Part shown: positions 14,178 to 48,822 of the stretch, one piece after another
How positions within the stretch are numbered: the first letter of the stretch is position 1
Layout of the letters: each line of letters begins with the position of its first letter
DNA from: a virus
IMG/VR virus record: IMGVR_UViG_3300024301_000013
Location: 7,758-71,757 of that record
Strand: one strand, 5' to 3'
Length of the DNA: 64,000 nucleotides
Translations under genes and position numbers: made by a program
The notes under the pieces: generated by a model
Told to the model about the DNA's origin: nothing
Databases searched by the model: none
What the model saw: only the letters and a program-made list of their open reading frames with translations

Positions 14178-15704
14178 ATGCTATACTTTTACAGTACAAG
14201 AAAAAAATCAGAAGAAAATAGAAAAAAAATTTTCCATTCTCTAAAATCAGATGTAAAAATCGTTGAATTTGAAAATAACGGTCAATATTCTTTAACACAG
14301 GCTTATAATAAGGCATTAGATATGTGTGAAGAAGATGAGATATTAGTTTTAGCTCATGATGATATAAATTTACCCTCTGGCTGGGATTTAAAAATAAGAG
14401 AATTATTTGAAACAACAGATTATGGTATTATAGGTATGGCTGGTTCAGCTTCTTTACCTAAGAGCGGTGTTTGGTGGGAGAACAGATCAGACTTAGCTGG
14501 TATTGTTTCACATGAAAGAGTAGTAAATGGTAAATTAGTAAAGTACGATTCTGAATTTTCTAGTAACCATGATTTTGTTATGAATGTTTGTGTGTTGGAC
14601 GGCGTTTTTATTGCTCTAAAAAAAGATAGGATAAAAAAACGCTTTAATGAAGACATTAAAGGATTTCATTATTACGATGTTAGTTTTACAGTTGATAATT
14701 TCTTAGAAGGTGTTAAAATAGGTGTTACAACTGCCTTTAAAATTCACCACAAAAGTGTAGGTGAGGTTAACAATTCTTGGCATTATAATAGAAACGTGTT
14801 TACTCAAATGTATGCAGATAAACTACCAATAGAAACTAAACCTATTTTGTCAGAAATAGTAAAAGTAAATCCCGTACAAGTTGCAGCTATATCTGTTGGT
14901 GTAATCATCTTAACAAAAGATAAAATCAATTATCTTACTAAATGTATTGATTCTTTAATAAAGAAAACTAATAAAAATATTTCTTTGAATATCGTTGTTG
15001 GGGATACAGGTTCTTCTGAAGAATCCTTAAAGTCCTTAGATGAGTATTTTAAAACAATAGAAGAAGAGCAACATAAAAATGTTAAATTAACTCTACATAA
15101 ATTAGAGTTTTACAATTTTGCCAAAAATAATAATGAAATAGTAAAAAAATATTTTACAGACGAAGAACTTCTCTTATTTTGCAATAATGATATTCAATTA
15201 ATAAATAATGCCTTAGATTTGATGGTATTAACTTACCAGAAAAATAAGCAGAGATGCGGTACAATTGGGTGTAGATTGCTTTATCCTAATTTGAAAGTTC
15301 AACATGGAGGTATTATTTTGTATGTAGACAAAAATAAACGTTTAGGGGCATCACATTATGGTTTGAAGAGTTATTATTCTTTTAATAGTAGATTATCTTC
15401 TAATATGGTTGGATGTACAGGTGCTTTTTTACTAATGAATAAAAAGTCTTTTGAAAAAGTTAATGGTTTTAATGAAAACACCGTGGAATGTTTTGAAGAC
15501 GTTGTTTTAAATATAGACGCAATAGCTAAACTAGACAAAACAAACTTTTATCAAGGCGACGCTGTTTGTTATCACTATGAATCTTTAACTAGAGATGAAT
15601 CCCCAGATAAATTTGAAAGGATAGGTAAAGATTTTATAAATGTTTTACAGCCAAAAATTTTAGAAAATAAAAATAAATTAAAAAATTATATCGTGATACT
15701 ATGA
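14178..15704 (+). CDS. Double GT2-domain glycosyltransferase
   Basis: N-domain LAHDD, LDGVF, FHYYD; C-domain VIILTKD, GDTGS, FCNND, GCTGAFL, FEDV. Confidence 0.88.
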   Translation: MLYFYSTRKKSEENRKKIFHSLKSDVKIVEFENNGQYSLTQAYNKALDMCEEDEILVLAHDDINLPSGWDLKIRELFETTDYGIIGMAGSASLPKSGVWWENRSDLAGIVSHERVVNGKLVKYDSEFSSNHDFVMNVCVLDGVFIALKKDRIKKRFNEDIKGFHYYDVSFTVDNFLEGVKIGVTTAFKIHHKSVGEVNNSWHYNRNVFTQMYADKLPIETKPILSEIVKVNPVQVAAISVGVIILTKDKINYLTKCIDSLIKKTNKNISLNIVVGDTGSSEESLKSLDEYFKTIEEEQHKNVKLTLHKLEFYNFAKNNNEIVKKYFTDEELLLFCNNDIQLINNALDLMVLTYQKNKQRCGTIGCRLLYPNLKVQHGGIILYVDKNKRLGASHYGLKSYYSFNSRLSSNMVGCTGAFLLMNKKSFEKVNGFNENTVECFEDVVLNIDAIAKLDKTNFYQGDAVCYHYESLTRDESPDKFERIGKDFINVLQPKILENKNKLKNYIVIL

Positions 15705-16378
15705 AAAAAAAGGTAGCAATAACAATAAATGATGTTATTAGAAGATATTATGATACTTTTAAAGAGGTTTATAATGTTTATTTAGATGAAGAGGATCAAT
15801 TTAATGATGAAAAGATTGAAAGAAAAGAAGACTTTGAGTTTGGAATTTTAGATGATGAAGGTGATATTCAAGAAATTACGGAAAATAAAATCGAAAAAAA
15901 AATCCTAAATTTGGAAGGTAAGGTTGATCCGATGTATATAACATCTAAAATCGAGTTTGAGTCAAAGGACTTTTTTCTTAGATTTTTATATGAGCAGATG
16001 AGTTTTGAAATAGGTGCTAAAACTAATGTAACTTACAAAGATGTCATTAACGACTTTCATGAACTGCAAAATCATTTTAATTCAAAAGGCATAGTTTTGG
16101 ATTTGGTTTCGATGGAAGTGGGTAATAGTAAACCAGCTACTTTATTCTTTTTATCGAGAGAAAAATGCAAATTAAATAATTTGAGGTTTGTTAGTTCTTA
16201 TGAAGAAATTTGGGAAGATTATAAAATGATTATTACAGCTGATAATTTTATAATTGAGAAAAAACCTAAAAATAAAAAACTCCTTAGAATAGAAACTGAA
16301 AATAATAAAGAATTAAAACAAGGAAAAAAATTCAATAATTTAAAAGAAATAGTAAACTATTTAAAAAATGGAAAATAA
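15701..16378 (+). CDS. HAD/5'(3')-deoxyribonucleotidase-like protein with degenerate motif I
   Basis: KVAITINDVIR in place of xGIDIDGVL; overall layout similar. Confidence 0.5.
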   Translation: MKKKVAITINDVIRRYYDTFKEVYNVYLDEEDQFNDEKIERKEDFEFGILDDEGDIQEITENKIEKKILNLEGKVDPMYITSKIEFESKDFFLRFLYEQMSFEIGAKTNVTYKDVINDFHELQNHFNSKGIVLDLVSMEVGNSKPATLFFLSREKCKLNNLRFVSSYEEIWEDYKMIITADNFIIEKKPKNKKLLRIETENNKELKQGKKFNNLKEIVNYLKNGK

Positions 16379-17471
16379 AGAAATAATAGAAAAATTGGTG
16401 GAATTAAAAGGTAAAATCCTAGACAAGAAAGGTAGGTTATTTTTCTTTGTTGCTGACACCAACGGCACACCAATGGCTTCAATTGAATATATCTATAGAG
16501 TAGCTGGTATCATGAGTGATGAGGGTTACGATGTAATTATGTTACACGAAAAAGAAAAATTCATCGGGGTTCAAAATTGGATGGGTGAAAAGTATTCAGG
16601 TTTGAAACATATTTCACTTGAAACTATGAATCAAAACCCAGAGTACCAAATAAACGGTGCAGATACTTTTTTCATTCCTGAACTGTACGCGGATTTGATT
16701 AAAAAACTATGGGAAACTAAATTACCATCTGATACAGTTGTTATTTGTCAATCACATAGTTTCATTTTTAAATATATGAATGCTGGGGAAAGTTGGAATT
16801 TTTACGGTGTGGATCATGCGATAACTACATCAAATAAAATGAAGACTTTTTTGAAGGAGTACCAACCAGTAAAAAATATTCATGTTATAAATCCCTTTAT
16901 ATCTGATGTTTTTTCGCCGTCCACCACCCCCCAAAAACCTATTATTTCAATTATTAGTAGAAATCAAGAGGACATAGAAAGAGTAGCTAAATTATTTTAT
17001 CAAAAATATCCAATGTATTCTTGGATATCATTTAGAACTCTCGGTAATATGCCTAAAGAAGACTTTGCTAATACTTTAAAGGAAACATGTTTATCTATTT
17101 GGTTAGACGATTATGCTACTTTTGGTACGTTTCCTCTTGAGTCAATGAAATCTGGTGTACCAGTTCTAATTAAAATTCCTGATCTAATACCTGAATGGGC
17201 TGAATCAATAGAAGAAGATAGAATCAAATTAAGTGATAATGCTATCTATGTTTCAAATATATTATCAATCCCAGATTATATTGCCCGTTTCATGGAAACT
17301 TGGTTGTTAGGTGAAGTTCCTCAAAAGATGTATGATAACATGCAGTCAACTGTTGAACCTTACACTGAAACTAATTTTATAGAACAAACAAAAGCAGTAT
17401 TTGGAACTATCTTTCAAAGCAAATTAGAAAAAGTAAATCAAACAATTAAAAAATACGAAGATGAGCAATAA
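16368..17471 (+). CDS. Glycosyltransferase, GT-B fold
   Basis: FIPE; FGTFPLESMKSGVPV donor-binding motif. Confidence 0.75.
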   Translation: MENKEIIEKLVELKGKILDKKGRLFFFVADTNGTPMASIEYIYRVAGIMSDEGYDVIMLHEKEKFIGVQNWMGEKYSGLKHISLETMNQNPEYQINGADTFFIPELYADLIKKLWETKLPSDTVVICQSHSFIFKYMNAGESWNFYGVDHAITTSNKMKTFLKEYQPVKNIHVINPFISDVFSPSTTPQKPIISIISRNQEDIERVAKLFYQKYPMYSWISFRTLGNMPKEDFANTLKETCLSIWLDDYATFGTFPLESMKSGVPVLIKIPDLIPEWAESIEEDRIKLSDNAIYVSNILSIPDYIARFMETWLLGEVPQKMYDNMQSTVEPYTETNFIEQTKAVFGTIFQSKLEKVNQTIKKYEDEQ

Positions 17472-18240
17472 ATTAACAGTAATAATACCAATACATAAAG
17501 TAGACATAGATGAAAGCTATTTGATTAGTATGTTTGAATCTTTGTCTGTGCAGGACAATAAAAACTTTGATGTTTTAATTGCTACATTTCCTGATTTACA
17601 AAGTCAGATTAATTTAGCTAATAAATTCGATGTTAAATTGTCTTTTTTGGATTTACCAGAGGAATTGAAAGATATTTACCCCAATTATACAGAGGTAATT
17701 AATTTCGCCGTCCACTCCGTAAATACAGAGTACTTCACAATATTACAATACGATAATGTATTAAATAATACGTTCGTTCATTTCGTAGAAGAATACTCAA
17801 CAGCATATCCAACAGTTTCAGTTTTTATGCCTATCACACTAGAATTCGACGGAGAAACCTTTGTGAGAACTGCAAACGAAGTAGCTTGGACCGTCAATTA
17901 CACCGAAAAGCAAGGGTATTTAGATTTTGAAACCCTTAAAAAATTACCTATATTCTCTTTTGTTTCTGCTATATACAAGACTGAAACGTTCCTTGAAAAT
18001 AACGGCTATAAACATAGCATAAAAAAGTATTTTGAATACGAATATTTTTTGAGAATACTTAATCAGCTAGCAGAAGTAATGGTTATTCCTAGGTTTATGG
18101 TGAGACATACCGTTAACAGACAAAATAGCTTATCTACTTATTATGATGATCAAGATAAACTTGAAATGAAGTTTTATCAAGATCTAGCAAAAAAAGAATA
18201 TTTCTTCCCTGAAGATAGACAAATTACATACGAAGGTTAA
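17461..18240 (+). CDS. GT2-family glycosyltransferase-like protein
   Basis: LTVIIPIH, INFAV..VNTEYFTILQYDN, YEYFLR. Confidence 0.7.
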   Translation: MSNKLTVIIPIHKVDIDESYLISMFESLSVQDNKNFDVLIATFPDLQSQINLANKFDVKLSFLDLPEELKDIYPNYTEVINFAVHSVNTEYFTILQYDNVLNNTFVHFVEEYSTAYPTVSVFMPITLEFDGETFVRTANEVAWTVNYTEKQGYLDFETLKKLPIFSFVSAIYKTETFLENNGYKHSIKKYFEYEYFLRILNQLAEVMVIPRFMVRHTVNRQNSLSTYYDDQDKLEMKFYQDLAKKEYFFPEDRQITYEG

Positions 18241-21705: not shown

Positions 21706-22920
21706 ATGCTTGCGTCTGAATTTAGTAGTAGCAGGAATGACATTATCTACAGTAAGAATATCTTTGAAGGAGAGGTTGTTGATTTGTTGGACGGCGAAGA
21801 GAATGGAATAATTAGGGTGAGAATACCCGAATTAGATAAAACTGTTGATGATAAAGACTTGCCACTGTGTTTCCCTTTATTTAATTTTTCTTTTTTTAGG
21901 TTGTTACCTAAAAAAGGGGAAAGGGTGACATTAATGTTCAGAAACATTTACAACACGGCTAATAGTAACAGTAAAGATATCAGGTATTGGATTAGTGTAA
22001 TACATTCAGATGTATCGAGGATTGATTTTGAAAAGTATTATTATGAGAGTAATAGACATTACCCAGATTCTCCTTTAGCAGCTTCAAGTAAGTTATCAGC
22101 TAAAGCTGAAAGTAAAGGTATCTTTGCTAAGAAAGATGAAATTTCTATTAACGGTAGAAATAATGTAAATATATTTTTAAAAAACAGACAGTTGTTATTA
22201 AGGGTTGGTGGACATCAAAATAACGAACCTTTAAAATTTAATAAAGTAAATCCCTCTTATGTTTTATTATCTTTTCCTGAACAGAAAGATAAGAAGTTAG
22301 GTCGTAAAACGGTAAACACAAAAACTTTTAAAGAGCCAACCCACGAATTCGCCGTCCAATTCACCACTGATCTAATAGCTATAATTACAGTTAGGGATAT
22401 TGCTAATAATAAGGTATTATCATCTACAAGAATCGTAAGATCAACTAAAGATGCTGTAGTCTTAGATATAAAAACTCAATTGTTATCTTTACAGTCAACG
22501 TTCCCTTTGTGGAGACTTACAGCTACAGATAGCTCCTTAGCCGCTCTCCCAAAAATATATCCTAGTACCCTATTGAATACGAGTATTCAAGAAACAGTAT
22601 TAGTGGAAAAGTCTTTGGATTTTTCAAGTTCTCTTACGGTAGCTGATAAAATATTTTTAGTTAGTCACTTAAACAATGAATTTTCTTTAAAAAAACAACC
22701 TGATTTGGTTACAGATGAAAATTTAGTTGAATTAAGTGAGAAAGCTCATCCAGTGCCTTATGGTGACAGGCTTGTCGAACTTTTGAGCTTGATGCGTGAT
22801 GTTTTATCTACACACGTTCATCCTGAACACGCTATGGAAGCAGTTAAAGAAGAAAAGCTACTGAAGCTATTAAATTTTGATTTACAGCGTCTTTTAAATA
22901 AAAATGTATTAACTGGGTAG
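21706..22920 (+). CDS. Baseplate central spike/hub protein (gp5/gpV-like OB fold)
   Basis: GEVVD..GIIRVRIPELD..LPKKGERV OB-fold start; C-terminal HVHP (HxH spike-tip motif). Confidence 0.7.
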   Translation: MLASEFSSSRNDIIYSKNIFEGEVVDLLDGEENGIIRVRIPELDKTVDDKDLPLCFPLFNFSFFRLLPKKGERVTLMFRNIYNTANSNSKDIRYWISVIHSDVSRIDFEKYYYESNRHYPDSPLAASSKLSAKAESKGIFAKKDEISINGRNNVNIFLKNRQLLLRVGGHQNNEPLKFNKVNPSYVLLSFPEQKDKKLGRKTVNTKTFKEPTHEFAVQFTTDLIAIITVRDIANNKVLSSTRIVRSTKDAVVLDIKTQLLSLQSTFPLWRLTATDSSLAALPKIYPSTLLNTSIQETVLVEKSLDFSSSLTVADKIFLVSHLNNEFSLKKQPDLVTDENLVELSEKAHPVPYGDRLVELLSLMRDVLSTHVHPEHAMEAVKEEKLLKLLNFDLQRLLNKNVLTG

Positions 22921-23497: not shown

Positions 23498-25315
23498 ATG
23501 GAAAAGAAGATAAACTATTATAGCAGAGACTTTCGCTCAATTAGGTCAGAACTAGTAACATTTGTAAAGAATAATTACCCAGATTATTATGTAGATTTTA
23601 ATGATGCTAGCATAGGTATGATGCTAATAGAGTTAAATGCTGCCGTAGGTGATATGTTATCTTTTAATACAGATAGAGCTTATCAGGAGAATAATATAGA
23701 TTATGCCCAAGAAAGAAGGTCTCTTTATGCTATGGCTAGAACTCTGGGATTAAAGATACCATCCAGAGCTCCATCAGTAACAATTTGTGATATATCTGTA
23801 GATCTACCTGTAAGCGGAAACAGTTTTGATTTACAGTATTGTCCTTTGATTGTTAGGGGTGCTCAAATTTCAGGTGCTAACTTAATATTTGAAACTTTAA
23901 ACGATATTGATTTCGCATCACCTTTTTCTCAAACTGGTGTGCCAAACAGAACTGTTGTACCTAATATAGATAATACGGGTAATATAGTTTCATATACATT
24001 AACAAAAAGAGAGATTGTTAGTAACGGTGTTACTAAATTTTATAAGAAGGTAATTACTTCATCTGATACAACACCTTTCCTAGAAATTATCTTACCAGAT
24101 AATGATGTGTTATCTGTTGATAGGATTATCACTTTGGATGGAACAGATTACGCTAGACTTCCAACACTAGTTGAATGGGAGACTGAAGCTAATAAATGGT
24201 ATCAGGTAGATAGTTTAGCTGAAAAGCAAGTGTTTATGGAAATGCCTCAAACTTTATCGGACAATAGTGCTATTAAAGTAGGAGAATGGAAGACTGTGTA
24301 TAACAAATATATGACAGAATTCACTGATAAGGGTTATTGTATTGTTAGATTTGGTAATGGTAATCAAGATACTTCTTTCTTTTCAGATTATACTTCCGAC
24401 ACTGATTTGTTATTTAAGCAGTTGGACGGCGAAATAAATAATCTTAGTTTAGGGGCTATCCCTAGAACAAATACTACTATGTTTATTCAATATAGAACAG
24501 GTGGTGGTTTAAGAACTAATATTGGAGCAAATGTATTAAACACTGTTAACAACATTAATATTATAGTTAATGGACCTAATCAGACTAAAAATGCTTTAGT
24601 TAAAACATCTGTTTCTGTTAATAACCCGTTACCTGCTTTAGGTGGTAGGGATCAGCTTTCTATCGAAGAACTTAGAAACTTAATTAAATTTAATTTTTCG
24701 GCTCAAAATAGATGTATTACTTTGGAGGATTATTATAACAGAATCAATTTAATGTCAGGTAATTTCGGTGCTCCTTATAGAACTTCTGTTGCGAAGAGAG
24801 ATAACAAAATAGAAGTGGTTATTTGTGGGATTGATCAGAGTTCTAAATTGACAAATGAATCAACAACAACATTAAAACAAAACATAGCCGACTATCTATC
24901 AAAATATAAATCCTTGAATGATTATATATTGGTTAGAGATGGTAAAATAATCAATATCGGTTTGGAGTTTACTTTATATGTGACAAAACTATCAGATAAG
25001 GTAGAAATCCTAAGAAACGCCGTCCAACAAATAACATCCTACTTCTCAACCCAAAACTATTTTGGTAATAACATATATCTTTCAGATTTAATCGAGTCAT
25101 TAAATAATATAGCTAATGTATTAAATGTTACTCAAATTAAAATCTTCAATAAGGTAGGTGGTAATTATTCTTTGAATCAAACTACTATGCCTTTTGCTGA
25201 TTCAATAACAAAAGAAATTGATTTAAGTCAACACCAAACTTTGTTTGTTGAATACGATGAGATATATGAAATAAAGTTCCCAGATATGGATATTAAGATT
25301 AATTTTGCCTTTTAA
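23498..25315 (+). CDS. Baseplate wedge protein (T4 gp6/baseplate J-like)
   Basis: YYSRDFRSIR, DFNDASIGMMLIE, GDMLSF..D, FGNG, GGRD, AQNRCITLEDY. Confidence 0.88.
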   Translation: MEKKINYYSRDFRSIRSELVTFVKNNYPDYYVDFNDASIGMMLIELNAAVGDMLSFNTDRAYQENNIDYAQERRSLYAMARTLGLKIPSRAPSVTICDISVDLPVSGNSFDLQYCPLIVRGAQISGANLIFETLNDIDFASPFSQTGVPNRTVVPNIDNTGNIVSYTLTKREIVSNGVTKFYKKVITSSDTTPFLEIILPDNDVLSVDRIITLDGTDYARLPTLVEWETEANKWYQVDSLAEKQVFMEMPQTLSDNSAIKVGEWKTVYNKYMTEFTDKGYCIVRFGNGNQDTSFFSDYTSDTDLLFKQLDGEINNLSLGAIPRTNTTMFIQYRTGGGLRTNIGANVLNTVNNINIIVNGPNQTKNALVKTSVSVNNPLPALGGRDQLSIEELRNLIKFNFSAQNRCITLEDYYNRINLMSGNFGAPYRTSVAKRDNKIEVVICGIDQSSKLTNESTTTLKQNIADYLSKYKSLNDYILVRDGKIINIGLEFTLYVTKLSDKVEILRNAVQQITSYFSTQNYFGNNIYLSDLIESLNNIANVLNVTQIKIFNKVGGNYSLNQTTMPFADSITKEIDLSQHQTLFVEYDEIYEIKFPDMDIKINFAF

Positions 25316-27788: not shown

Positions 27789-29305
27789 TGGAAAATAAAA
27801 TATTATTACCTTCAAAAAGGTTTCTTTTAGCATCTGATGAGGATGTTTTCTTGGATGTTAATTTGGAACAGAACCATAAATTAATGCCTATAGATACGTT
27901 ACAAAAAACAGTATCTAGTTATGAAGTTTATTTGGATGAAAGAAGTAAATCATTTAACTATAGGGTTTACGGAAATATTTTTCTTGTAGGTACTAATATT
28001 TTGTGTGATTTTGATGGCATAAATGGTTATGAATCAGTCGTTGAAGCACAATATTATGATCCAGAAACAGAGTTATATAGATTTACTTTGGATCAAGTCT
28101 TAATCAATGATAACGGTTGGTATTTTTATAAGGATAATGTTTTACCTTGCAATAGAACTGAATTAGAACCAAAGAAGGAAAGATTTGATTTAATCAAGAA
28201 AGATGAATGGAGTCTATTTGTAACCTACGCTGCTGAAAAAAATGTGCAACCGTTATTATTTAATGGTATAGACATAAAAGATGGCATAGCTTTAATGGGT
28301 GCTGCTGATGCAGAGGTAGACGGTAAAGTTCTTTCTTTCTTTGCTTGCCCTTTAACTCATAACTTAGCTGCTGGTGATAGTGTGAACATTTATAACCAAA
28401 ATGGTTTTGTAAAGAAGTGTACTGTATATCAGGTTGGGACAGCAGATAACGGTTATAAAAAGAATGTGTTTTTTGTAGATGAAAAATTAGACTTCATCTC
28501 AAACGTTATGATTGACAAATATAGGTTTAAGAAAGTAGTCGGAGAGGTTGAATCAGAGTATTATTCAAGATGGTATAAAAAATTAACCTCCTTGGATGAC
28601 TACGATGCCTTCAGAACGTCTTTTTCTAAAAACATATACAATGACACCAATGTTTCTTTTGTTTACCCTGAAGGAGTGGATATAGAAGGACTGGTGGATA
28701 ATTTGAATAGACCTTTAACAGAATTATTTGTAACGGTAGTTAAAAACAAGTCAAGTGATTTCTGGGGTGAAACATTGAGTGCTATTAATGTTTCCATATC
28801 AGATATTAATTACGATTTTAATAAGGTATATCAAGGAGGTATTTTAAACCCTGTTGAAACATTAACCGCAACTCAAGATTTATTCTTTGGGGATATAGTT
28901 GAATACAATAAAATAGATATGTTAGAAGTGGAGCTTAATTTCGCCGTCCACCTCTTCAACACCCAAAACAGATTGGATAATACACTATACGAATCATATT
29001 ATTATAAACCACATTATAGATATCAAATAAAAGATTTATCTGAAATAATATTTAAAGAAGATGGTCTATTAACCCCACCAGATTACGCGGAAACAATTAA
29101 TCTTATTAAACAGTGGAGGGCAATTACAAATACTGATGGATACCCTTATTTGAATAAACATCATTATGTATATTGTAATTTTAATGTATTCATAAAAAGA
29201 CAAGATCCCTGTGATAGATACGATATTGGAAGTAATGCTTTGATTGCAGGTAAATGTATAGATTTAACACCTAGCAAGATAACTAATATTGAAAAGATAT
29301 GCTAA
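27788..29305 (+). CDS. Putative tail/baseplate structural protein
   Basis: Coupled ORF in structural operon. Confidence 0.65.
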   Translation: MENKILLPSKRFLLASDEDVFLDVNLEQNHKLMPIDTLQKTVSSYEVYLDERSKSFNYRVYGNIFLVGTNILCDFDGINGYESVVEAQYYDPETELYRFTLDQVLINDNGWYFYKDNVLPCNRTELEPKKERFDLIKKDEWSLFVTYAAEKNVQPLLFNGIDIKDGIALMGAADAEVDGKVLSFFACPLTHNLAAGDSVNIYNQNGFVKKCTVYQVGTADNGYKKNVFFVDEKLDFISNVMIDKYRFKKVVGEVESEYYSRWYKKLTSLDDYDAFRTSFSKNIYNDTNVSFVYPEGVDIEGLVDNLNRPLTELFVTVVKNKSSDFWGETLSAINVSISDINYDFNKVYQGGILNPVETLTATQDLFFGDIVEYNKIDMLEVELNFAVHLFNTQNRLDNTLYESYYYKPHYRYQIKDLSEIIFKEDGLLTPPDYAETINLIKQWRAITNTDGYPYLNKHHYVYCNFNVFIKRQDPCDRYDIGSNALIAGKCIDLTPSKITNIEKIC

Positions 29306-31737: not shown

Positions 31738-31747
31738 GTGATATAAA

Positions 31748-38885: not shown

Positions 38886-38916
38886 AATCCAAAAAATTTA
38901 TTTATATTTAATCCTA

Positions 38917-39684
38917 ATGGAGAATAATAATTTAATATTAGGATTGGACGTTTCTACTTCTACCGTCGGTATCAGCTTGTTTGCTGCCGACGGTAGACTT
39001 TTAGAGTTAAACCACATTTCACCGATAGTCAAAGACGAAACCTTTTCAAAGGAAGATATTCTTTTGGAGAAATGTAATTTAATTGTAAACTTTTTAGTTG
39101 AAAATTATAATATCCCAGACATTGCTGAAGTTATTTTGGAAACACCTTTAATTAGTTCTCAACAAACTGATACAGCAGCGTTATTGAATTATTTTGGTGG
39201 AATGATTTATGCCACTTTGAGGATGAATTTCAAATGTAAAATTAACTATATAACGGTAGATGAAGCTAGACGTTTTGGATTACCTGAATTAGTTGGAGGT
39301 AAGACTAGATCTTTGTTTGGAGTTTTTAATGGGGTTTTAGATCGTAAGATTATTTCAGAATACAAGAAGTTGATTGTGCTTTCCTTAATTGCACAAAGAT
39401 ATCCTTCTATTGTATGGTTAATGAATAATAATTTATCTATTGACAAGAAAAACTTTGACAGAGCGGATTCAATCACTGTTGTTTTAGGGTATAAACAAAA
39501 GAATGGTGAGTGGGGAGCTAATATTCAAGATATTAATTCTACTATTGAATTAATAAAGAAGAACATAGAATACGAAAAATTCTGTAAAAGTTTAACTGGA
39601 ACAAAAGCTGAAAAAGACAAAGAAAAGTATCATTATTTAAAAAATACTTTTGAAATCGAAAAATATATTAACATTGCCCTATAA
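38917..39684 (+). CDS. RuvC-like Holliday junction resolvase
   Basis: ILGLDVSTSTVG, VILE, DRADS acidic triad. Confidence 0.75.
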   Translation: MENNNLILGLDVSTSTVGISLFAADGRLLELNHISPIVKDETFSKEDILLEKCNLIVNFLVENYNIPDIAEVILETPLISSQQTDTAALLNYFGGMIYATLRMNFKCKINYITVDEARRFGLPELVGGKTRSLFGVFNGVLDRKIISEYKKLIVLSLIAQRYPSIVWLMNNNLSIDKKNFDRADSITVVLGYKQKNGEWGANIQDINSTIELIKKNIEYEKFCKSLTGTKAEKDKEKYHYLKNTFEIEKYINIAL

Positions 39685-39688
39685 TTTA

Positions 39689-39720
39689 TTTGATTATTAG
39701 AAAAAAAGTTTTTACCTTTG
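39689..39720 (+). promoter_or_regulatory. Bacteroidota sigma70-type promoter
   Basis: TTTG-N20-TACCTTTG upstream of ATG 39742. Confidence 0.75.
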
Positions 39721-39741
39721 TAGAAATTTTTACTAATAATA

Positions 39742-41052
39742 ATGGATAAAATAAATTTATTTAAGAAGTATTCAGAATCAGAGGTTTATCTTGAAGAAGT
39801 AAATCACGTTTATGTTCACAAGAAAACTGGAACACTATATAACTCTGTTACGACCGCGTTATCTCTGTTAAAGAGCGATTTTGAAAAAGATGGTATCATT
39901 GATGCAATTATTAAACAGTACAATAATTTTGTATCTTGGTATTTGAAATCTGGTGCAGACAAATCCCTTATGAAGGATTTGCTTTTTGATTATATCATGT
40001 ATGGTAAGCTAAGACCTTACGAAAGATATAATGATAAAAAGATTTATAAGGCTTTAACAAAATATTCCTCACCGAACGAATTAGCTGCTGAATTGAAAAT
40101 AATTAAAGCAGCTAACCCTAATATTCTACTGAAGGGTTTTTATTTGAATGATGATAATACTATCATGAATAAAGAACAAATCCTTCAAATTTGGGAATCT
40201 ACCAATATGTTGTCACGACATTATGGTCACATGATCCACGAGAGCATTGAATTGCATTTCTTGGATGTTCAGGGATTTTCTGATCCTTCATTTAAAATGA
40301 AAAAAATTAAGGGGATACAAGAAAAGTATGCTGAACTTAATGAAATCCTTGAACAAGTAGGCAAAGGAAATAACAAAGAATTCTTCTCCATTTATAATAT
40401 GGATTTATCGCCTATTCAGTTTATGGAATGGATTGTTTATAAGTTTAACGAAGTTAGACCCTACAAAGGAGAGGTCATTGTTCCAGAAAAAGTAAACTTT
40501 TCACCTACCTATGAAATTTGTGGTACAACTGACGTCGAGGTTGTTTTCGACGATGTTAATTTTGAAATTGAAGACCACAAAACAAATAAGTCTTTTACTT
40601 TTGAGAATGAGTATGGGAAGAATTTAAAAGAGCCTTGTGATGACATGCCTGAAACTTCTTATTCAACTTATGGTTTACAGTTGAACATATACGGGCATAT
40701 ACAAGAAAAGGAGTTTGGACGGCAATTTAAGGGGGCTAGAATCACTTATTTTGATAGGCAGAAGAAGGAATTTGAATTAATTGAATTACCTATTATGTTG
40801 GATCGAGCTGAAGCTGTCTTGAAACACTTTTTAGAATTTCAAAACACATATAAGGAAAGGTTTTTAACATCGGGTATCTTTGATGGTATCCCTAAAAATC
40901 ATCATAATGTGTTAACCAAACTTCTTTATGAAGATATTGAAAAACGTAGAAAGAGTGGTAAGATAGACTTTGAAGATAAAGAAGCTAATAGACAACATTA
41001 CAAGGCGTTTGTAAAAAAAATCAGTGATAATTTAAGTCAAGCTATTAAATAA
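39742..41052 (+). CDS. PD-(D/E)XK exonuclease (RecB/Cas4-like nuclease domain)
   Basis: SVTT, GHMIHESIE, ICGTTD, IEDHKT, YGLQLNIY. Confidence 0.8.
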   Translation: MDKINLFKKYSESEVYLEEVNHVYVHKKTGTLYNSVTTALSLLKSDFEKDGIIDAIIKQYNNFVSWYLKSGADKSLMKDLLFDYIMYGKLRPYERYNDKKIYKALTKYSSPNELAAELKIIKAANPNILLKGFYLNDDNTIMNKEQILQIWESTNMLSRHYGHMIHESIELHFLDVQGFSDPSFKMKKIKGIQEKYAELNEILEQVGKGNNKEFFSIYNMDLSPIQFMEWIVYKFNEVRPYKGEVIVPEKVNFSPTYEICGTTDVEVVFDDVNFEIEDHKTNKSFTFENEYGKNLKEPCDDMPETSYSTYGLQLNIYGHIQEKEFGRQFKGARITYFDRQKKEFELIELPIMLDRAEAVLKHFLEFQNTYKERFLTSGIFDGIPKNHHNVLTKLLYEDIEKRRKSGKIDFEDKEANRQHYKAFVKKISDNLSQAIK

Positions 41053-41054
41053 TA

Positions 41055-41861
41055 ATGATAAAAAAGATATTTCACACAGCCGATTGGCATTTAAGGAATT
41101 TTGATAGGCAAGGTGAATTTATTGAATCTATAGATTTGCTTTTGGATTCGATAAAGGGATACAATTTGGGATTTGAAGAGGGGATTATCTGTATTACAGG
41201 TGATCTCTTCGACACCCAAGAACAAGTATCGAATGAAGCAAATTTAATAATGGTTAACACCTTGTATAAGTGTGCTGATATTCACCCTGTGATGATTATA
41301 TTGGGTAATCACGACTTACCTAAGAACAGAACTAGAATGGATGCTATAAGCCCTATAATTGCTGCTATGGGTAATCCTAATATATGTTATTCAAAAAAAT
41401 CAGAAATTATAAAATTTCATGAAATAAATTTTGTGCATTACTGTTTTTTAGATAACTTTGCGGTGAAATTAGCTGAAGAAGATAAGGGTGGTCAAAAGTT
41501 TATTGGTTTATACCATGCTCCTTTAAGGAATTGTAAGAACCCTTTGAACCCTGTTTTCGAGAAAAAAATGCAAGAATATGATACTACTTCTAATATTTTT
41601 GAAAATTGTGATGTGGTATTAATGGGTGATATACATTACCCTCAAAAGATAAGCCACAAGGATTATGAATGTTACTATTGTGGTTCACTATATCAACAAA
41701 ACTTTGGGGAATATGTGAATTTTCACGGCTACGGTGTTTTAGATTATGAAACCTTGGATTATACTTTTGTAGAATTAAATAATAGTTACGGAAAATATAA
41801 AATTAAAGTAAAAAGTTTTAACGAGAACGTTAAAAACATCACTATAACAAATTTAAAATAA
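41055..41861 (+). CDS. sbcD: Mre11/SbcD nuclease (gp47-like)
   Basis: HTADWH, GDLFD, GNHD, MGDIH, GSLYQQNFGE. Confidence 0.9.
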   Translation: MIKKIFHTADWHLRNFDRQGEFIESIDLLLDSIKGYNLGFEEGIICITGDLFDTQEQVSNEANLIMVNTLYKCADIHPVMIILGNHDLPKNRTRMDAISPIIAAMGNPNICYSKKSEIIKFHEINFVHYCFLDNFAVKLAEEDKGGQKFIGLYHAPLRNCKNPLNPVFEKKMQEYDTTSNIFENCDVVLMGDIHYPQKISHKDYECYYCGSLYQQNFGEYVNFHGYGVLDYETLDYTFVELNNSYGKYKIKVKSFNENVKNITITNLK

Positions 41862-41865: not shown

Positions 41866-44349
41866 ATGAAACCTTTTTCACAAGTAGTAGTCGAAGTTGA
41901 AGATTCAATTTCTGAACTTGAAAAGATTGAATTGGAGAAAAGTATTAAGAGTGAATACGGCTCTAATTTAGAAGTTAAAATTAAAGGTCGAAAAATTAAA
42001 AACGAAGCCTTTGAAGATGGTAGAGTTAATGTGTTGAATAACAATTTAAAATCTGTTTACGAGAATTATTTGACGGAGAATTATCCAGATGTTAATTTGG
42101 ATTCTTTTTTTGAGTTGGACGGCGAAATATCAAATCTAATCCCAGATCAAAATGATGGAGCTAAACAATTCAGAGTAAAGCGATTTGCAGGTAAGAACAT
42201 CTTATCCTTTAATGAGTTTGAAGTAGAATTAGAGAATCGTGGTATTCTTAGGATTTTTTCTGAACCTCATAATATGGGTGGTAAATCCAATTTGATTAGG
42301 TCTTTGAAGATTCTTCTATTTGGTGAATTCTATCGCTCTAATCAGGAAAAAACAACCCTATCTACCATTGTTAATAGATTTTCTCCACTAAACATCGCTT
42401 ATGTTGAAGGAGAAATTGAAATTGAAAACAAAACCTATTTCATTAGAAGGGATTTTACAAGAAACAATAATAACAAGGTTTCCCAGCGGGTTACTATTTC
42501 TTGTGATGGTGTAATGATTGATGTTGCCCAGTTTGAGAAAATGATAGGTAAGATTAAGGATTTCTTATTTATCTCTTTCTTTGACAGTTTTTCCATTGAA
42601 AAATGGTTGAATACAAAGCCAACAGAACGCTACAGAATGTTCCTCAACTACTTTGGCTTGGGTAATATTGAAGAGAAAGCAAAGACAGCTAAAAAGCAAT
42701 ATGATATTTTCTTGAAAAATTCTATTGCGAAAAAGTATGAAGGTGTAGATATTGATTTTGAAATAGTATCTTTGAAAAATCAAATTAATACCTTAAAGCG
42801 TGAAAATGCAAATTATCAGCAAGATTTGAACGCAAAAGTATTAGCTAAAGATTCTTTGAAAGAAGAAATTAAAAAGCTAAGTAATCTTCTTAAAGGTGTT
42901 CCAGATTCTTTGTTAGGTGAAACACCTGAATCCTTGGAGGGCTTGATTAAACAGAATAAAGCAACAATAGAAACGAACGAGAAAACTATTATAAACCTTG
43001 AGAACTCTATTGCTGTTATTAATTCAACTAGCGAGGAGTTAAATGCTAAAATAGCTGATCTTCAAAATGAAATTTCTAAAGTTGAAGCTGATAAATCTTT
43101 GTTGGATGACTTACAATTGCAGAACTACATGTTGTCTAATTATGTTGTTCCTGCTACTCGTCTAAGTGAAAAGGCTTCTATAGAGAAAGAAATAGACAAT
43201 CTAAGAACTGAATATATTAGTATCACATCAGATAAAAAGAATAAGGAAGAGTTATTGGAAAACACACCTGACACAGTAGTTTGTAATTTATGTAATGGTG
43301 TTAGTGATAATAAGAAAAAGAAAGCTGAAATCACAGAACAAATTGCGGCCTTAATTGCTAAAGCTGAAGATGTAAAACAAAAAGGCATACAAGCTAAAAA
43401 CAATTTGACTGCTTTAGAGAATAATATTAAAGGTGAAGAAATTGATTATAAGAAGGAGATTAATAAAAAAATTGAAGAGTTAAACACAAAAATTAGAGAG
43501 AATAAAAGCGGAAAGATTGAAAAGATTAAATCTGAAATTTTAGTGTTTCAAAATGATTTATCTAAAATCTTAAACAACGAAAAAATAAAGGCTAATATCA
43601 GAATGATTAAGAGCGAAATAAATAGCCTTGTTACTAGGAATTCAGAGTTAGAGGAACGGTTGAAAAATATTAGCTTGTTTACCAACGATTTAGAAACAAA
43701 TAAAAAAACTAATGAACAAATATCAATTAAGGAATTAGAAATTGAAGACATTCAAAATGAAATTAACAATTTTAATGTTAAGATTTCAATTAATAATGAT
43801 TCTCTTTCAAAATTTCAAGAGCAGATTGATTTCTATTTGGAAAATAAAGATTTAATTTCTGATGAATTAAGTAAAGACAAGAACTATAAGATTTACATTG
43901 ATGTTCATAGTAAAGGTGGTTTGGCAATGAAAATTTTGAGGGATTTAGCTGACGATATTAATCAGGACTTGAGAGCTGTACTTTCTGAAGATGACTTTTC
44001 GCCGTCCATCAAAATCGAAGATGATGCAATTGAATTCTATTTTGAAAGAAACGGTATAGAGTTCAATATGTCTGAAGGTAGCGGTTATGAAAAAACAGTT
44101 CTTCTATTAGCACTTCACTATCTATTGCTTTCAAAAATGGTTGTGCCTATCTCAAATATATTCATCCTAGATGAGGTGTTTGTAGCAGTTGCATCACCTT
44201 TCTTACCTAGAGTATATCGAGTAGTAGAGAAATTATTAAACATCTTTGAAACAGTAGCTCTTATAACCCATAACGAAGAAGTTGCTGAATGGTGTAACGA
44301 TAACATTAAAATCATTAAAAATAATAATATTTCAAAAATAGTAGGATAA
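41866..44349 (+). CDS. sbcC: Rad50/SbcC ATPase (gp46-like)
   Basis: Walker A HNMGGKS, coiled coil with CNLC zinc hook, signature SGYE, Walker B FILDE, ITH. Confidence 0.9.
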   Translation: MKPFSQVVVEVEDSISELEKIELEKSIKSEYGSNLEVKIKGRKIKNEAFEDGRVNVLNNNLKSVYENYLTENYPDVNLDSFFELDGEISNLIPDQNDGAKQFRVKRFAGKNILSFNEFEVELENRGILRIFSEPHNMGGKSNLIRSLKILLFGEFYRSNQEKTTLSTIVNRFSPLNIAYVEGEIEIENKTYFIRRDFTRNNNNKVSQRVTISCDGVMIDVAQFEKMIGKIKDFLFISFFDSFSIEKWLNTKPTERYRMFLNYFGLGNIEEKAKTAKKQYDIFLKNSIAKKYEGVDIDFEIVSLKNQINTLKRENANYQQDLNAKVLAKDSLKEEIKKLSNLLKGVPDSLLGETPESLEGLIKQNKATIETNEKTIINLENSIAVINSTSEELNAKIADLQNEISKVEADKSLLDDLQLQNYMLSNYVVPATRLSEKASIEKEIDNLRTEYISITSDKKNKEELLENTPDTVVCNLCNGVSDNKKKKAEITEQIAALIAKAEDVKQKGIQAKNNLTALENNIKGEEIDYKKEINKKIEELNTKIRENKSGKIEKIKSEILVFQNDLSKILNNEKIKANIRMIKSEINSLVTRNSELEERLKNISLFTNDLETNKKTNEQISIKELEIEDIQNEINNFNVKISINNDSLSKFQEQIDFYLENKDLISDELSKDKNYKIYIDVHSKGGLAMKILRDLADDINQDLRAVLSEDDFSPSIKIEDDAIEFYFERNGIEFNMSEGSGYEKTVLLLALHYLLLSKMVVPISNIFILDEVFVAVASPFLPRVYRVVEKLLNIFETVALITHNEEVAEWCNDNIKIIKNNNISKIVG

Positions 44350-45839: not shown

Positions 45840-46919
45840 ATGCAAAATTTTTTATCTTTTTTCAAAAGCATAAAAAGTGAATTTGAAGAGAATCATAAAG
45901 TTGCGGACTTTATATTCACAGTCATCATCTTATTTGTTAGCTTAACGTCCTTTTTTCACGTAATGGAATATTGGACGTTAACCAACAAAGCCCCTTTTTA
46001 TGTTATCACAGCTATTGCAACTGAACTTTTCATTTTGGGTTCTATGTTGGCAATTAGATACACTAGTGTAGCTTGGATCCCCTTCATATTTGGCATATTC
46101 GTTCAAGGTATAGGTAACGTATTTTACAGTTATATTAATATTCAGGTAGATTCAGTTTACTTCTTAGCTTTTCAGGAATTGTTTAAGCCAATGTTTGAAA
46201 TAGCTTATGGGGATGAACTTGAATTAGCGAATTACAAAAGGGTACTTGCATATTCAAACGGTTTATTTTATTTGAGTCCGATTGTGTTTCTTTGGGCAAA
46301 ACTTTCTTTGAAAAGTCAAACTAAGAAATTAAATTTAAAAACTCTGAATGATTTACCTATTGAAAAGAGCGGAGGTGATACACCCCCTGAACCAGATGAT
46401 TTAGGGGATATAAAGCCACTTAAATCTAAGGAGCAAGAAGAACCTCTAGCAGAAGAAGTTTCGCCGTCCACCCAACCATCACAACAAATAGATGTAAAAG
46501 AAGTACAGGTAGAAACTAATGAAATAGTAGAAGAAGTTCTTAAGGAAGAAGAACAAGCTATTAAGGAAGTAGAACAAGTTGTTGAGAAAGAAGCAGAAGA
46601 AGTTATTAAGGAAGAAAAAGAAATTATTAAGGAAGAAGAAGAGCAAGAAGAAAAAATACAAAACACTCCAACAAAAAGAGTTTTTAGTTTTAACCCTGCT
46701 ACTCCTCCATTAATTGAAAAAAAAAAGTTAGAACAAAAACCAGACAAAGATGATGGTATTCAAATTTGGACTAACATTTTACACGAAGTAGCTAGAGATA
46801 ATGATTATGAGCAAGATAATGAAAAGGTCTTAAAAGTTAGAGAAGTAAAGCGCCCAGTTGGTAATGTGAAAATTACAGACAAATTTACTATTGCAGGTTT
46901 AAAACCTGAAAACAAATAA
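45840..46919 (+). CDS. Multi-TM membrane protein with Glu-rich tail
   Basis: About four hydrophobic segments, then low-complexity EEVxKEE repeats. Confidence 0.65.
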   Translation: MQNFLSFFKSIKSEFEENHKVADFIFTVIILFVSLTSFFHVMEYWTLTNKAPFYVITAIATELFILGSMLAIRYTSVAWIPFIFGIFVQGIGNVFYSYINIQVDSVYFLAFQELFKPMFEIAYGDELELANYKRVLAYSNGLFYLSPIVFLWAKLSLKSQTKKLNLKTLNDLPIEKSGGDTPPEPDDLGDIKPLKSKEQEEPLAEEVSPSTQPSQQIDVKEVQVETNEIVEEVLKEEEQAIKEVEQVVEKEAEEVIKEEKEIIKEEEEQEEKIQNTPTKRVFSFNPATPPLIEKKKLEQKPDKDDGIQIWTNILHEVARDNDYEQDNEKVLKVREVKRPVGNVKITDKFTIAGLKPENK

Positions 46920-46922
46920 AAA

Positions 46923-46958: not shown

Positions 46959-46982
46959 ATTTATATAATAAATTAAAAATCT

Positions 46983-47399: not shown

Positions 47400-47400
47400 A

Positions 47401-48822
47401 ATGAATAAGAAACAATTAAATAGAGTTACGTTTATTGGAGAGAGTAAGATGGTGGTGGACGGCGAACATACAGTATCAGTTGAAAGAAATGCAGCTGGTA
47501 AGACATACGTCTATGAAAAGAAAGATGGATCAAAGAGAAAATTCGATGATGAAAATCTCCTCTTTGATTACCTAGATGAAATGACAAGCACAGGAAGTGT
47601 TGGTGGAGGTATGGAATTACCATTAGCTACCCCAAAAAACAAAGGTGCTTTTATGCGTAGAACAATCAGCCCTTATACTGATGTTGTTGATGTAAACGAC
47701 TTGGAACTTATGAGTGAAGAGTTAAAAAAGCTGACTACAGAGCTTTTGAAAGAAGAAGCTAAAGCACACCCTAACTATAACCTTATCGAACGTTATAGAA
47801 AGACAAACGGTGAAGGTAGTAAGAAGAACGTCAAAGAAGTTGAAGATAAAATTAATATTGTTTATCAAGATATACTTAAAGCAGCAGAACCTAATTACTA
47901 CAATGATAATAACGATTATAATGGTGATGGTATACCGAATCAATTTAAAGAAAATAACACTAATTTAGATTTGATGTATGACGGTATTACTGATGAGTTT
48001 AAAGAAAGAATTACAAAAGAACTTTCAAAAGATCCAACTGGTGTTAAGTTAATGCAAGCCGCATTGGCGAAAGCAAAAGTTAAAGAACAGAATCCAACAA
48101 ATACCAATTTATTCCAATTAGGTTCAGATATTGAAACTCTAAAAGTAGGTATCAAGGATGCAGATGTAATTAAAAACCCTAAAGGACACGCTAGACATGG
48201 TGTAGCAGCTCTTGGATTTAAAATAAATGAAGGTAAAATGGTAAGATTTAACTTTAATTCAGAAAAATACGATTTTGAACATAATAAAAAACAATTGGAA
48301 GAGTCTATTCCAAACAAAGTAAAAAACGAAGGTACTCGTTTTGAAATGAAAGATAGCAAAGGTAATTTGTATCTGCTTGAATGGAACAACGGTGAACCAA
48401 CAATCCTTGAACATAGAAACTTGATTGCTGAAGAAAAAGCCAATCAAAAATTGAATATGTTATTTGAATATAAGAATTGGGATAAACCTGTAAAATCTAA
48501 AAAAATAGAATTTGATTTCTTCACGAAAAAATCTTTAAATGAAGAAGTTGAAGAGGATGATATGGTTGAATACTTGGTTCCAGAATGGTCTTTGTCTGCT
48601 CTAGTAAATGGTGATTTCTCTGGATTGTCTGATGAAGATGAAGCTAAAATTGAAAAGTTTATAAAAGAAGTAACTAGCCATTATGGTAATGCACATTTCA
48701 TGGTAGGTGATTTGGAAGGCGAAGATAACTTAGGTTTCAAATATAGAAACGATATTGATAATCTAGGGAGCAATGTTTATAGATTGTATATCAAACCTCT
48801 GAAATCGAAAATGGAACAATAA
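47401..48822 (+). CDS. Hypothetical multi-module protein, possibly head-internal
   Basis: Start ATG 47401; several L/I-x-E sites between modules. Confidence 0.65.
   Translation: MNKKQLNRVTFIGESKMVVDGEHTVSVERNAAGKTYVYEKKDGSKRKFDDENLLFDYLDEMTSTGSVGGGMELPLATPKNKGAFMRRTISPYTDVVDVNDLELMSEELKKLTTELLKEEAKAHPNYNLIERYRKTNGEGSKKNVKEVEDKINIVYQDILKAAEPNYYNDNNDYNGDGIPNQFKENNTNLDLMYDGITDEFKERITKELSKDPTGVKLMQAALAKAKVKEQNPTNTNLFQLGSDIETLKVGIKDADVIKNPKGHARHGVAALGFKINEGKMVRFNFNSEKYDFEHNKKQLEESIPNKVKNEGTRFEMKDSKGNLYLLEWNNGEPTILEHRNLIAEEKANQKLNMLFEYKNWDKPVKSKKIEFDFFTKKSLNEEVEEDDMVEYLVPEWSLSALVNGDFSGLSDEDEAKIEKFIKEVTSHYGNAHFMVGDLEGEDNLGFKYRNDIDNLGSNVYRLYIKPLKSKMEQ

Follow-up and report, generated by a model that had tools for sequence, protein, structure and literature searches.

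A repeated polar DNA element with a strand-specific compositional wake in a lineage of large tailed phages

The repeated word and its copies in the window

We analyzed a stretch of 64,000 nucleotides of phage DNA, hereinafter the window, which corresponds to bases 7758-71757 of the 71,757-base virus record IMGVR_UViG_3300024301_000013, and characterized in it the repeated 9-letter word TGGACGGCG. The window has a GC content of 30% and encodes, among others, a family B DNA polymerase (PolB), a baseplate wedge protein, and glycosyltransferases; judged from the genes of the window, the lineage is one of large tailed phages. Its nearest cultured PolB relatives, the Salinibacter phages, are only 26% identical. 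The virus record is 22% complete according to CheckV, which implies a genome of roughly 320 kb. The copies of TGGACGGCG share two characteristic features: (i) the word is the core of an asymmetric DNA-level element of about 32 nt, in which a G/T-rich tract of about 20 nt that is free of C precedes the 9-nt core and AAA follows it, and (ii) the lineage keeps this element every 1-2 kb or so on both strands, whatever the orientation of the genes.

The window contains 32 copies of the word, 15 on the plus strand and 17 on the minus strand, compared with 0.06 expected from shuffles, and the full contig contains 34. In contigs G000 and G001 together, the 9-mer occurs 101 times, where a third-order Markov model predicts 0.47 occurrences, and every other strongly enriched 8-mer or 9-mer in them is a sub-word of TGGACGGCG. 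Five more virus records, which share 67-97% identity with one another or with this contig, carry 67, 42, 49, 10, and 12 copies, that is, one copy per 1-2 kb, and no copies of the reversed control. The word-bearing records fall into two clades with about 67% identity between them. Altogether, the six contigs contain 214 copies (114 forward and 100 reverse), 184 of them non-redundant. One-mismatch copies of the core are also in excess in the six contigs (61 versus 17 for the reversed control), which suggests that they are decaying or nascent sites.

With respect to genes, 102 of the 214 copies are sense, 92 are antisense, and 20 are noncoding. The coding copies are read as LDGx (xTG-GAC-GGC-Gxx) in 87 cases, as SPS in 50, and as FAV followed by H or Q in 42, and never as RRP. 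Since only the frames that give tolerable peptides are used, the word is a DNA-level element placed wherever the proteins can bear it. In G001, which is 78% identical, the word is conserved exactly at 26 of the 33 aligned sites, and at one more site it lies beside an alignment gap; the probability of such conservation by chance is about 0.11 per site at the local identity of 70-86%. Between the two clades, 47 of 98 aligned sites are exact. Judged by this conservation, the word is under purifying selection.

The intervals of individual copies given below comprise the 20-nt 5' tract, TGGACGGCG, and 3 nt, and the copy is kept in G001 unless stated otherwise. The PolB gene contains copies at 13..44 (plus strand, antisense; the core is not kept in G001), 229..260 (minus strand, sense, in the frame xTG GAC GGC Gxx read as LDGD), and 3631..3662 (plus strand, antisense, in the FAVH frame). 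Further sense copies on the plus strand encode LDGE at 10029..10060, 10559..10590 (absent at the orthologous G001 position), 21768..21799, 24403..24434 (in a baseplate-wedge-like gene), 42096..42127 (in an SbcC-like gene), and 58046..58077; LDGV at 14576..14607, 37055..37086, and 58490..58521 (the last being absent at the orthologous G001 position); VDGV at 32275..32306; and VDGE at 47436..47467. On the minus strand, the sense copies at 5638..5669 (VDGE) and 5671..5702 (LDGE) form a direct pair, 33 nt apart.

The other antisense copies all lie on the minus strand. The SPS frame is used at 16912..16943, 32418..32449, 38134..38165, 43997..44028 (again in the SbcC-like gene), 46459..46490 (in a stretch without G001 alignment), 54146..54177, and 56011..56042. 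The FAVH frame is used at 17703..17734, where the core in G001 stands beside a 3-nt alignment gap, and at 28939..28970, and the FAVQ frame at 22347..22378 (absent at the orthologous G001 position) and 25015..25046, whereas the copy at 31397..31428 is in the PST frame. The copies at 32275..32306 and 32418..32449 form a convergent pair, 126 nt apart, and this spacing is kept in G001.

The minus-strand copy at 8919..8950 is located between the main open reading frames (ORFs) 8109-8555 and 9064-10251, and another minus-strand copy, at 59209..59240, is intergenic, just upstream of ORF 59221-59598. A plus-strand copy at 25628..25659 coincides with the start of ORF 25647-27788 and is absent at the orthologous G001 position. 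Finally, the minus-strand core copy at 62223..62254 is found in a tail-spike-like gene of higher GC content, in the rare WTA frame and with a poor 5' tract, and it is absent at the orthologous G001 position.

Composition around the copies

The pooled flank statistics use the 184 non-redundant copies of the six related contigs; orthologous copies of related contigs are only partly independent, and each clade alone gives the result. Expected base frequencies were calculated for each contig by gene strand and codon position from mechanically called ORFs, the coding fraction of the six contigs being 0.72-1.00. In the position matrix, the 5' flank is G/T-rich and C-poor between positions -20 and -1 or thereabouts: 132 of the 184 copies have G at -2, and at -1, 180 have G or T and none has C. 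The AAA on the 3' side of the core is seen as A at positions +9 to +11 in 129, 145, and 112 copies. C-free runs on the 5' side of the motif in the window have a median length of 11 nt, compared with 4 nt at 5000 random positions (Mann-Whitney p = 7e-7), and the G-free run 3' of the motif has a median of 5 compared with 4 (p = 0.007). For the 34 copies of the full contig, the G+T z-scores in 5-nt bins to -25 are 7.7, 3.8, 4.7, 2.6, and 2.0 relative to 1000 random-position sets, and the 3' flank is A-rich in the first 5 nt only.

The first-pass annotation of this DNA had described the copies as a two-sided switch of strand composition, G/T-rich on the left and A/C-rich on the right, on the basis of seven intervals: 14569-14595, 16924-16956, 25027-25063, 28951-28970, 32248-32294, 46471-46490, and 47430-47455. 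Their lengths and base counts are exactly as given there. These intervals represent the 5' tracts of the copies that start at 14576, 16912, 25015, 28939, 32275, 46459, and 47436, respectively, and all seven belong to the 5' flank in motif orientation. The flank 'after CGCCGTCCA' and the flank 'before TGGACGGCG' are the same side, and thus the hand-picked examples show a one-sided tract and not a two-sided switch. The polarity was described correctly: the motif strand is G/T-rich 5' of TGGACGGCGAA, and with the G/T-rich side lying 5' of each copy, this polarity is indeed opposite to that of a bacterial-type origin.

Within genes, the G+T fraction at third codon positions in 5-nt bins to -20 is 0.94, 0.88, 0.87, and 0.71, compared with 0.50 expected, for the 184 copies. 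Codon positions 1 and 2 are shifted as well, but only to about -15, with G+T of 0.71, 0.59, and 0.58 in the three bins to that point. It is G that is enriched within -20..-1, at 0.41 versus 0.12 at fourfold sites and 0.80 versus 0.30 at twofold purine sites. A 3-nt periodicity of the tract tracks the codon phase, and in the FAV-frame class its peaks are displaced by one position. In the 19 noncoding copies, G and T prevail from -13 to -4, C is absent from -9 to -5, and no periodicity is seen. Because codon positions 1 and 2 are shifted, G is enriched, and noncoding copies carry the tract, the 20-nt tract behaves as a selected part of the recognised element. For these first 20 nt, the extended degenerate recognition tract that the annotation had mentioned as an alternative is the better description, and its preferred explanation, a mutational footprint of recurrent single-strandedness, is not supported for this part, from which most of its examples came.

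Beyond the tract, the 5' flank carries a long composition tail, or wake. The third-position G+T excess over the 184 copies is +0.35 at -20..-1 and then falls to +0.094 at -50..-21, +0.072 at -100..-51, +0.043 at -300..-101, and +0.015 at -1000..-301, and the site-bootstrap intervals of all 5' bins to -1000 exclude zero. The tail is described by a single exponential with an amplitude of 0.088 and a decay length lambda of 298 +/- 47 nt (chi2 17.5 for 17 degrees of freedom), and the integrated 5' excess is positive at 134 of 184 sites. On the 3' side, the excess is about zero at +14..+108 and -0.029 at +109..+308 (confidence interval -0.039 to -0.018).

The base composition of the tail differs from that of the tract. 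At fourfold sites of the tail, T is up, A is down, and G is flat, the T excess being +0.13, +0.09, +0.054, and +0.039 in successive bins to -300; some excess of T over C is also seen at twofold sites beyond -20. On the 3' side, T is about 0.04 low to +300 and about 0.02 low at +309..+508, and C is slightly up. The G-enriched tract and the tail of T over A and C are therefore different things. Sense and antisense copies taken separately show the same skew profile, the signs are the same in all six contigs, and the tail is significant in each clade alone.

The strand-composition step reported by the first-pass annotation thus remains when gene strand and codon position are controlled and sense and antisense copies are stacked separately, and the skew extends beyond 10 flanking nucleotides, with the decay length given above. 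The A-rich look noted there for 100-300 nt after minus-strand copies is the T-over-A tail as seen from the other strand, T exceeding A on the motif strand. A deamination signature of C-to-T plus A-to-G does not agree with a tail in which T is up, A is down, and G is flat. Overall, our analysis confirms the observation and lends partial support to the interpretation.

A skew of this kind might be an artefact of codon usage, gene-strand bias, hand-picked examples, or neighboring copies. In favor of this, the tract has a 3-nt periodicity that moves with codon phase, and the earlier examples were hand-picked, all from one side. A similar objection exists for the 'GT-rich islands around Chi' of Escherichia coli, which, in the passages of PMC3763553 that cite Biaudet et al. 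1998 and Colbert et al. 1998, are attributed to codon usage. However, the expectation used here is conditioned on gene strand and codon position, and sense and antisense copies give the same result. Masking all copies with up to two mismatches, together with 60 nt on the 5' side and 20 nt on the 3' side, leaves the tail unchanged. Isolated sites, which have no neighbor within 900 nt, keep both the 5' tail (+0.089, +0.054, +0.028) and the 3' lobe (-0.027), and the two sides of the same site differ.

Orthologous genes provide a further control. At 45 orthologous positions that lack the motif in the other clade, neither the tract (+0.045) nor the tail to -100 (-0.027 and +0.004) differs from zero, and the value in the -300..-101 bin, +0.020, is not significant. 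In the 47 orthologues that bear the motif, the tract (+0.392) persists, as does the tail (+0.103 at -50..-21 and +0.038 at -300..-101), with a non-significant +0.028 in the -100..-51 bin. This control answers the codon-usage objection once made to the E. coli islands, in contrast to which, as far as the passages cited above describe them, the skew found here survives codon control. By conditioning, masking, isolated sites, and motif-less orthologues, the artefact explanation is refuted, and we assign it next to no probability.

The arrangement of the copies relative to each other is not random with respect to orientation. Among the 31 pairs within 200 nt, none is divergent, 14 are convergent, and 17 are direct; the pooled list contains three of the convergent distances twice, possibly because the same pair was counted in two related contigs. 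The closest of the 58 divergent adjacent pairs is 210 nt apart, compared with 24 nt for the closest convergent pair. Where a divergent neighbor is present within 900 nt, the tail is reduced, as superposition predicts. Two sites that face each other across their 5' sides are apparently not tolerated at distances up to about the reach of the wake, and the lack of divergent pairs below 210 nt (0 of 58) argues for a functional constraint or interference and not for a purely passive footprint. Seven convergent pairs within 70 nt constitute inverted repeats with spacers of 15-57 nt; four of the seven follow directly after the end of a gene, and a fifth pair (G004 63-104) lies outside genes where its contig begins. 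Neither orientation bias nor regional blocks were detected in these incomplete genomes (114 forward versus 100 reverse copies; runs tests, z 0.4-1.4).

These statistics are reminiscent of uptake sequences, namely the DNA uptake sequence (DUS) of Neisseria and the uptake signal sequence (USS) of Pasteurellaceae. The descriptions available to us give those a core of about 9-12 nt, a degenerate flank, a density of about one per kb, balanced orientations, preferred reading frames, lineage specificity, and inverted pairs just behind genes, as in terminators. The element might accordingly be a self-tag that is bound as double-stranded DNA by a phage protein and serves packaging recognition, genome compaction, or kin recognition of the uptake-sequence type; the G/T tract would then be an extended contact, and the wake would reflect weak selection for DNA shape or flexibility (T-tracts), with no single-stranded intermediate. 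The core of about 9 nt with its degenerate flank, the density, the balanced orientations, the preferred frames, and the seven inverted pairs, mostly behind genes, all fit such a tag, as do the constraint that the tract imposes on codon positions 1 and 2 and the avoidance of divergent pairs, which could reflect a steric or compositional conflict between two bound sites.

On the other hand, binding sites do not normally impose an exponential, strand-asymmetric synonymous bias at 100-300 nt, nor a lobe of opposite sign on the other side. Selection per site at such a distance would be extremely weak and yet consistent in two clades, and no candidate reader protein was found. Unlike DUS and USS, the element is carried by a phage with a baseplate wedge and not by a naturally competent bacterium, and an uptake receptor is not involved. 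To our knowledge, a 300-nt strand-asymmetric wake has not been described for uptake sequences. We consider a self-tag read as duplex DNA to be improbable.

Restriction of the word to one phage lineage

Over-represented, asymmetric, and G/T-rich words with a polar flank are known from Chi, and the element could be a host signal, either Chi or an uptake sequence, that the phage has accumulated in order to be spared by, or to exploit, the host RecBCD or AddAB. The element, with 9 nt plus a 20-nt tract and AAA, is longer than the known Chi sites of 5-8 nt. Bobay et al. 2013 (PMC3784561) report that some phages over-represent host Chi: lambdoid phages without recombinases accumulate it, and phages that have their own recombinase and nucleases, as this one does, avoid it.

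We searched for a cellular source of the word in several sets of genomes. In the five genomes with the closest relatives of a TnpB protein encoded in the window, the core showed no excess over the reversed control. The extended word KTGGACGGCGAA gave at most nine matches in any one of 401 genomes, which is similar to the reversed control; these genomes belong to the phylum of one of the five, a genome labelled as a Flammeovirgaceae metagenome-assembled genome (MAG), and hence presumably to Bacteroidota. A complete scan of 185,579 species genomes with a 30-nt extended pattern, which itself matches 13 of the 184 phage copies, produced 37 single matches, where about 30 are expected by chance. Given the lack of enrichment in all three sets, a borrowed host signal is very improbable.

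One of the 37 matches lies on a 3.9-kb contig (L452) from a MAG labelled Nitrososphaerota. Six typical element copies are present on this contig, two of them as a convergent pair, and neither nucleotide nor tblastx comparison matched it to the six phage contigs. The MAG that contains it shows no genome-wide excess (62 copies versus 51 for the control), which also speaks against a host origin of the signal. This contig is probably a mis-binned piece of a virus of the same lineage.

Among viral loci, the word is found in every locus with a PolB at least 65% identical (L330-L338 and L349), and 70 more distant loci, with PolB best-segment identity of 32-46% to the first protein of the query alignment, contain no copies. 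Intermediate relatives (PolB 47-49%) did not turn up in two metagenome scans, and an alignment-based viral scan returned only close relatives. A 14.8-kb locus (L004) of a 319-kb record, with a GC content of 49%, has a single copy, and three other large records, which are unrelated, have 1-8 copies. On the strength of these searches, the word is private to the phage lineage, and none of the bacterial and archaeal genomes searched is enriched in it. Literature searches by sequence (among the matches listed) and by topic yielded neither the word nor any phage-private analogue of it.

G/T-rich 9-mers repeated 10-20 times were observed in distant PolB loci, including L357, L362, L367, L368, L373, L393, and L400. 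In five of them (L362, L368, L373, L393, and L400), the repeats lie inside long repeat proteins, and two show a 45-nt period. The top 9-mers of these five loci were rejected as analogous words of distant relatives: they are peptide repeats and occur almost entirely on one strand.

Encoded machinery, possible mechanisms, and other features of the window

Several genes for DNA processing lie on the plus strand of the window. They include those for a RuvC-like Holliday-junction resolvase (38917..39684; phrog_159, E 6.7e-6), an exonuclease that probably belongs to the PD-(D/E)XK superfamily (39742..41052; phrog_298, E 9e-13), an SbcD/Mre11-like nuclease subunit (41055..41861; phrog_100, E 5.9e-16), and an SbcC/Rad50-like subunit (41866..44349; phrog_77, E 1.4e-31). 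For the exonuclease, a Pfam search gave nothing at E<0.01; in the language-model atlas, its score is 0.96, and 29 of 30 matches are in PDDEXK_1-bearing clusters. Relatives of the lineage also have genes for a UvsX/RecA-like recombinase, a second exonuclease, and a DnaB-like helicase, the helicase gene adjoining those of the recombinase and the exonuclease. The lineage thus encodes the nucleases, the recombinase, and the resolvase that a mechanism based on 3' recombination tails requires.

We favor, at somewhat below even probability, the interpretation that the element is a phage-private polar signal, and that on the 5' side of each copy the motif strand repeatedly becomes single-stranded or is synthesised anew, for instance as a 3' recombination tail. 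The composition profile suggests a one-directional process that starts at each copy and runs about 300 nt toward its 5' side. The element would be read by phage-encoded machinery for DNA-end processing or replication. In the most likely form, the complementary strand would be resected 5' to 3' from the site, or a nuclease would be attenuated there as at Chi, and a 3'-ended recombination tail would end at the GC-rich core. The G/T tract could then be the end at which the recombinase is loaded; RecA, according to PMC3763553, binds TGG/TG-rich single-stranded DNA most stably. In a genome with 30% GC, the GC-rich core could provide a stable 3' primer terminus for recombination-dependent replication. 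The 20-nt tract would be selected, and the 300-nt wake would be a mutational or weakly selected shadow of the process, its excess of T over A possibly arising from depurination with A inserted opposite the lesion, from polymerase bias, or from selection for T-rich single strands.

Several points weigh against this interpretation. All data, the 24 public runs considered included, are assembled contigs, and the single-stranded DNA, nicks, and ends are deduced from composition. Four of these runs, with fragmentary contigs, gave about 330 single-nucleotide polymorphisms over 20 kb, too few to compare substitution rates between the two sides of the copies. Since the tail, with T up, A down, and G flat, does not show the classic deamination pattern, an extra assumption is needed to explain it. 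Conserved and clade-specific sites have equal tails, with no sign of the wake growing with site age, although the class of 'clade-specific' sites may hold losses instead of gains. Predicted single-stranded folding of the 5' flank with the core is not weaker than that of random flanks with the core (p = 0.13), which leaves the idea of an unstructured landing pad without support. The orientation of the copies is balanced, without the regional polarity of bacterial Chi. Among the proteins, the PD-(D/E)XK assignment of the exonuclease at 39742..41052 is a language-model lead only, and a RecB-type PDDEXK_1 domain (PF12705) was found in none of the five contigs searched for protein families, which are 4-41% complete and in which UvrD-type helicases were not searched for.

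One of the closest known systems is Chi of RecBCD and AddAB, with which the element shares a short, asymmetric, G/T-rich, over-represented, and polar word that occurs about once per few kb per strand. Chi is thought to mark 'self' DNA and leaves a recombinase-loaded 3' tail that ends at the site, and the wake observed here lies where such a tail would lie. In contrast to Chi, the element is carried by a phage and by no cellular genome searched, its two strands are balanced without a replication-linked bias, and no RecBCD/AddAB-type enzyme was found in the partial contigs just mentioned, within the limits of that search. A more specific proposal, which we put forward tentatively and as rather doubtful, is a phage-private Chi analogue: the 32-nt polar tag would tell the DNA of the phage from that of the host or a competitor, and the phage's own resection machinery (SbcCD-like proteins and exonucleases) would stop there. 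The resulting tails would end in a GC clamp preceded by a G/T tract for recombinase loading and would prime recombination-dependent replication, and their repeated exposure would account for the wake of about 300 nt as a mutational trace.

The direction of the wake is also compatible with DNA synthesis that starts at the element. According to this explanation, a phage primase or primase-polymerase begins in the GC-rich core on the lagging-strand template and extends along the G/T tract as an A/C-rich primer; the wake would result from low-fidelity primer extension or from errors of primer replacement, decaying with patch length, and the GC-rich core would give a stable primer hybrid in an AT-rich genome. 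The spacing of 1-2 kb on both strands corresponds to the size of Okazaki fragments, and synthesis from the site would head to the 5' side of the template, which is the side of the tract and the wake. From convergent pairs, whose AT-rich spacers measure 15-28 nt, synthesis would proceed outwards in the manner of an origin, and the lineage has a DnaB-like helicase gene beside those of the recombinase and exonuclease. Primase sites and single-strand initiation (ssi) signals, such as those of T7 gp4, of plasmids, and of G4-type phages, are likewise strand-specific on a single-stranded template, have Okazaki-like spacing, and have a G/T-rich template 5' of the start; T7 primase acts at (G/T)(G/T)GTC.

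However, known primases recognise about 3 nt and not 9 nt plus a 20-nt tract, and the element is far more conserved than such trinucleotide sites. The hairpin of ssi signals is missing, folding having shown no special structure. The DnaG zinc ribbon (PF01807) and Prim-Pol (PF09250) were each found in none of the five contigs, a weak argument at their completeness of 4-41%. Exposure of the template would predict a wake that is weakest just 5' and strongest just 3' of the site, and the reverse is seen. In addition, converging synthesis is normal in replication, so that the avoidance of divergent pairs would remain unexplained. Taken together, these considerations make a priming site unlikely.

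Two other comparisons concern the strand distribution of the element and its skew. T5-type site-specific nick sites are confined to one genome strand, whereas the copies of the element are about equally frequent on both. The strand skew of origins and of mitochondrial genomes is similar in that G/T is in excess on the strand that stays single-stranded for longer and is graded with exposure. The skew found here differs in consisting of hundreds of local, word-anchored switches, about one per 1-2 kb and each decaying over about 300 nt, instead of one genome-wide switch, and in a spectrum in which the excess of T over A predominates; its polarity is opposite to that of bacterial origins, and the cumulative skew over the whole window follows gene strand.

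Chi, uptake sequences, and KOPS (FtsK-orienting polar sequences) are over-represented oriented words of bacterial chromosomes. The element looks like a phage-owned variant of such over-represented polar genomic words, with an unusual compositional wake. For phages, PMC3784561 describes over-represented words as borrowed host signals. The present case differs in that the word is owned by the phage lineage and kept through deep divergence at a cost in protein sequence, and that synonymous sites show a strand-specific gradient which is present or absent together with the word. Gradients of this kind rarely offer themselves for computational study of a polar DNA transaction, be it resection, priming, or nick processing; this one gives both the direction of the transaction and its approximate range of about 300 nt without an experiment. 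If the favored mechanism were confirmed, the element would reveal the way in which a large phage tags its DNA and processes it, and it would offer a route to similar systems from sequence alone. If the Chi-like reading were true, the element would be the first self-marking hotspot system encoded by a virus and the first such site that can be recognised from its own compositional shadow.

Other features of the window and of the related contig G001 were noted. ORF 44349-45575, directly 3' of the SbcC-like gene, encodes a protein of 408 aa without a Pfam or PHROG match. A lead from a language model and from structure comparison (score 0.95) suggests a sigma-70-like factor, the template modelling (TM) score being 0.5-0.65 on the hit and about 0.4 on the query; by this model-based match, the ORF may encode a phage sigma factor.

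An IS605-type TnpB protein (Pfam OrfB_IS605, a Cas12f1-like TNB domain, and a helix-turn-helix) is encoded by ORF 52685-53908. The 1946-nt segment around it, 51986-53931, is missing from the 78%-identical G001, contains no copies of TGGACGGCG, and on comparison of the two contigs looks like a recent insertion. The closest relatives of this TnpB are encoded by Cytophagales MAGs (53-58%) and filamentous cyanobacteria (about 52%). The tail-spike-like gene mentioned above encodes 1077 aa on the minus strand within 60753-63986 (phrog_4636) and lies in a stretch with a GC content of 37-40%, compared with 30% elsewhere.

In G001, the large subunit of ribonucleotide reductase is divided between two ORFs of 387 aa and 391 aa (G001 74639-78026, equivalent to L117:14639-18026), and a 344-aa ORF with a weak match to HNH endonucleases lies between the two halves; the interruption may be an intron or an intervening mobile element. 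Near-identical sequence to the region 31001-41000 of the window is present in metagenome contigs from salt marsh, wastewater, freshwater, marine, lake, and riverine habitats. This region or a part of it was recovered in 20 rows from 14 studies, two of the rows possibly being the source sample, and it was represented with shares of 0.22-0.34 in three metatranscriptome runs.

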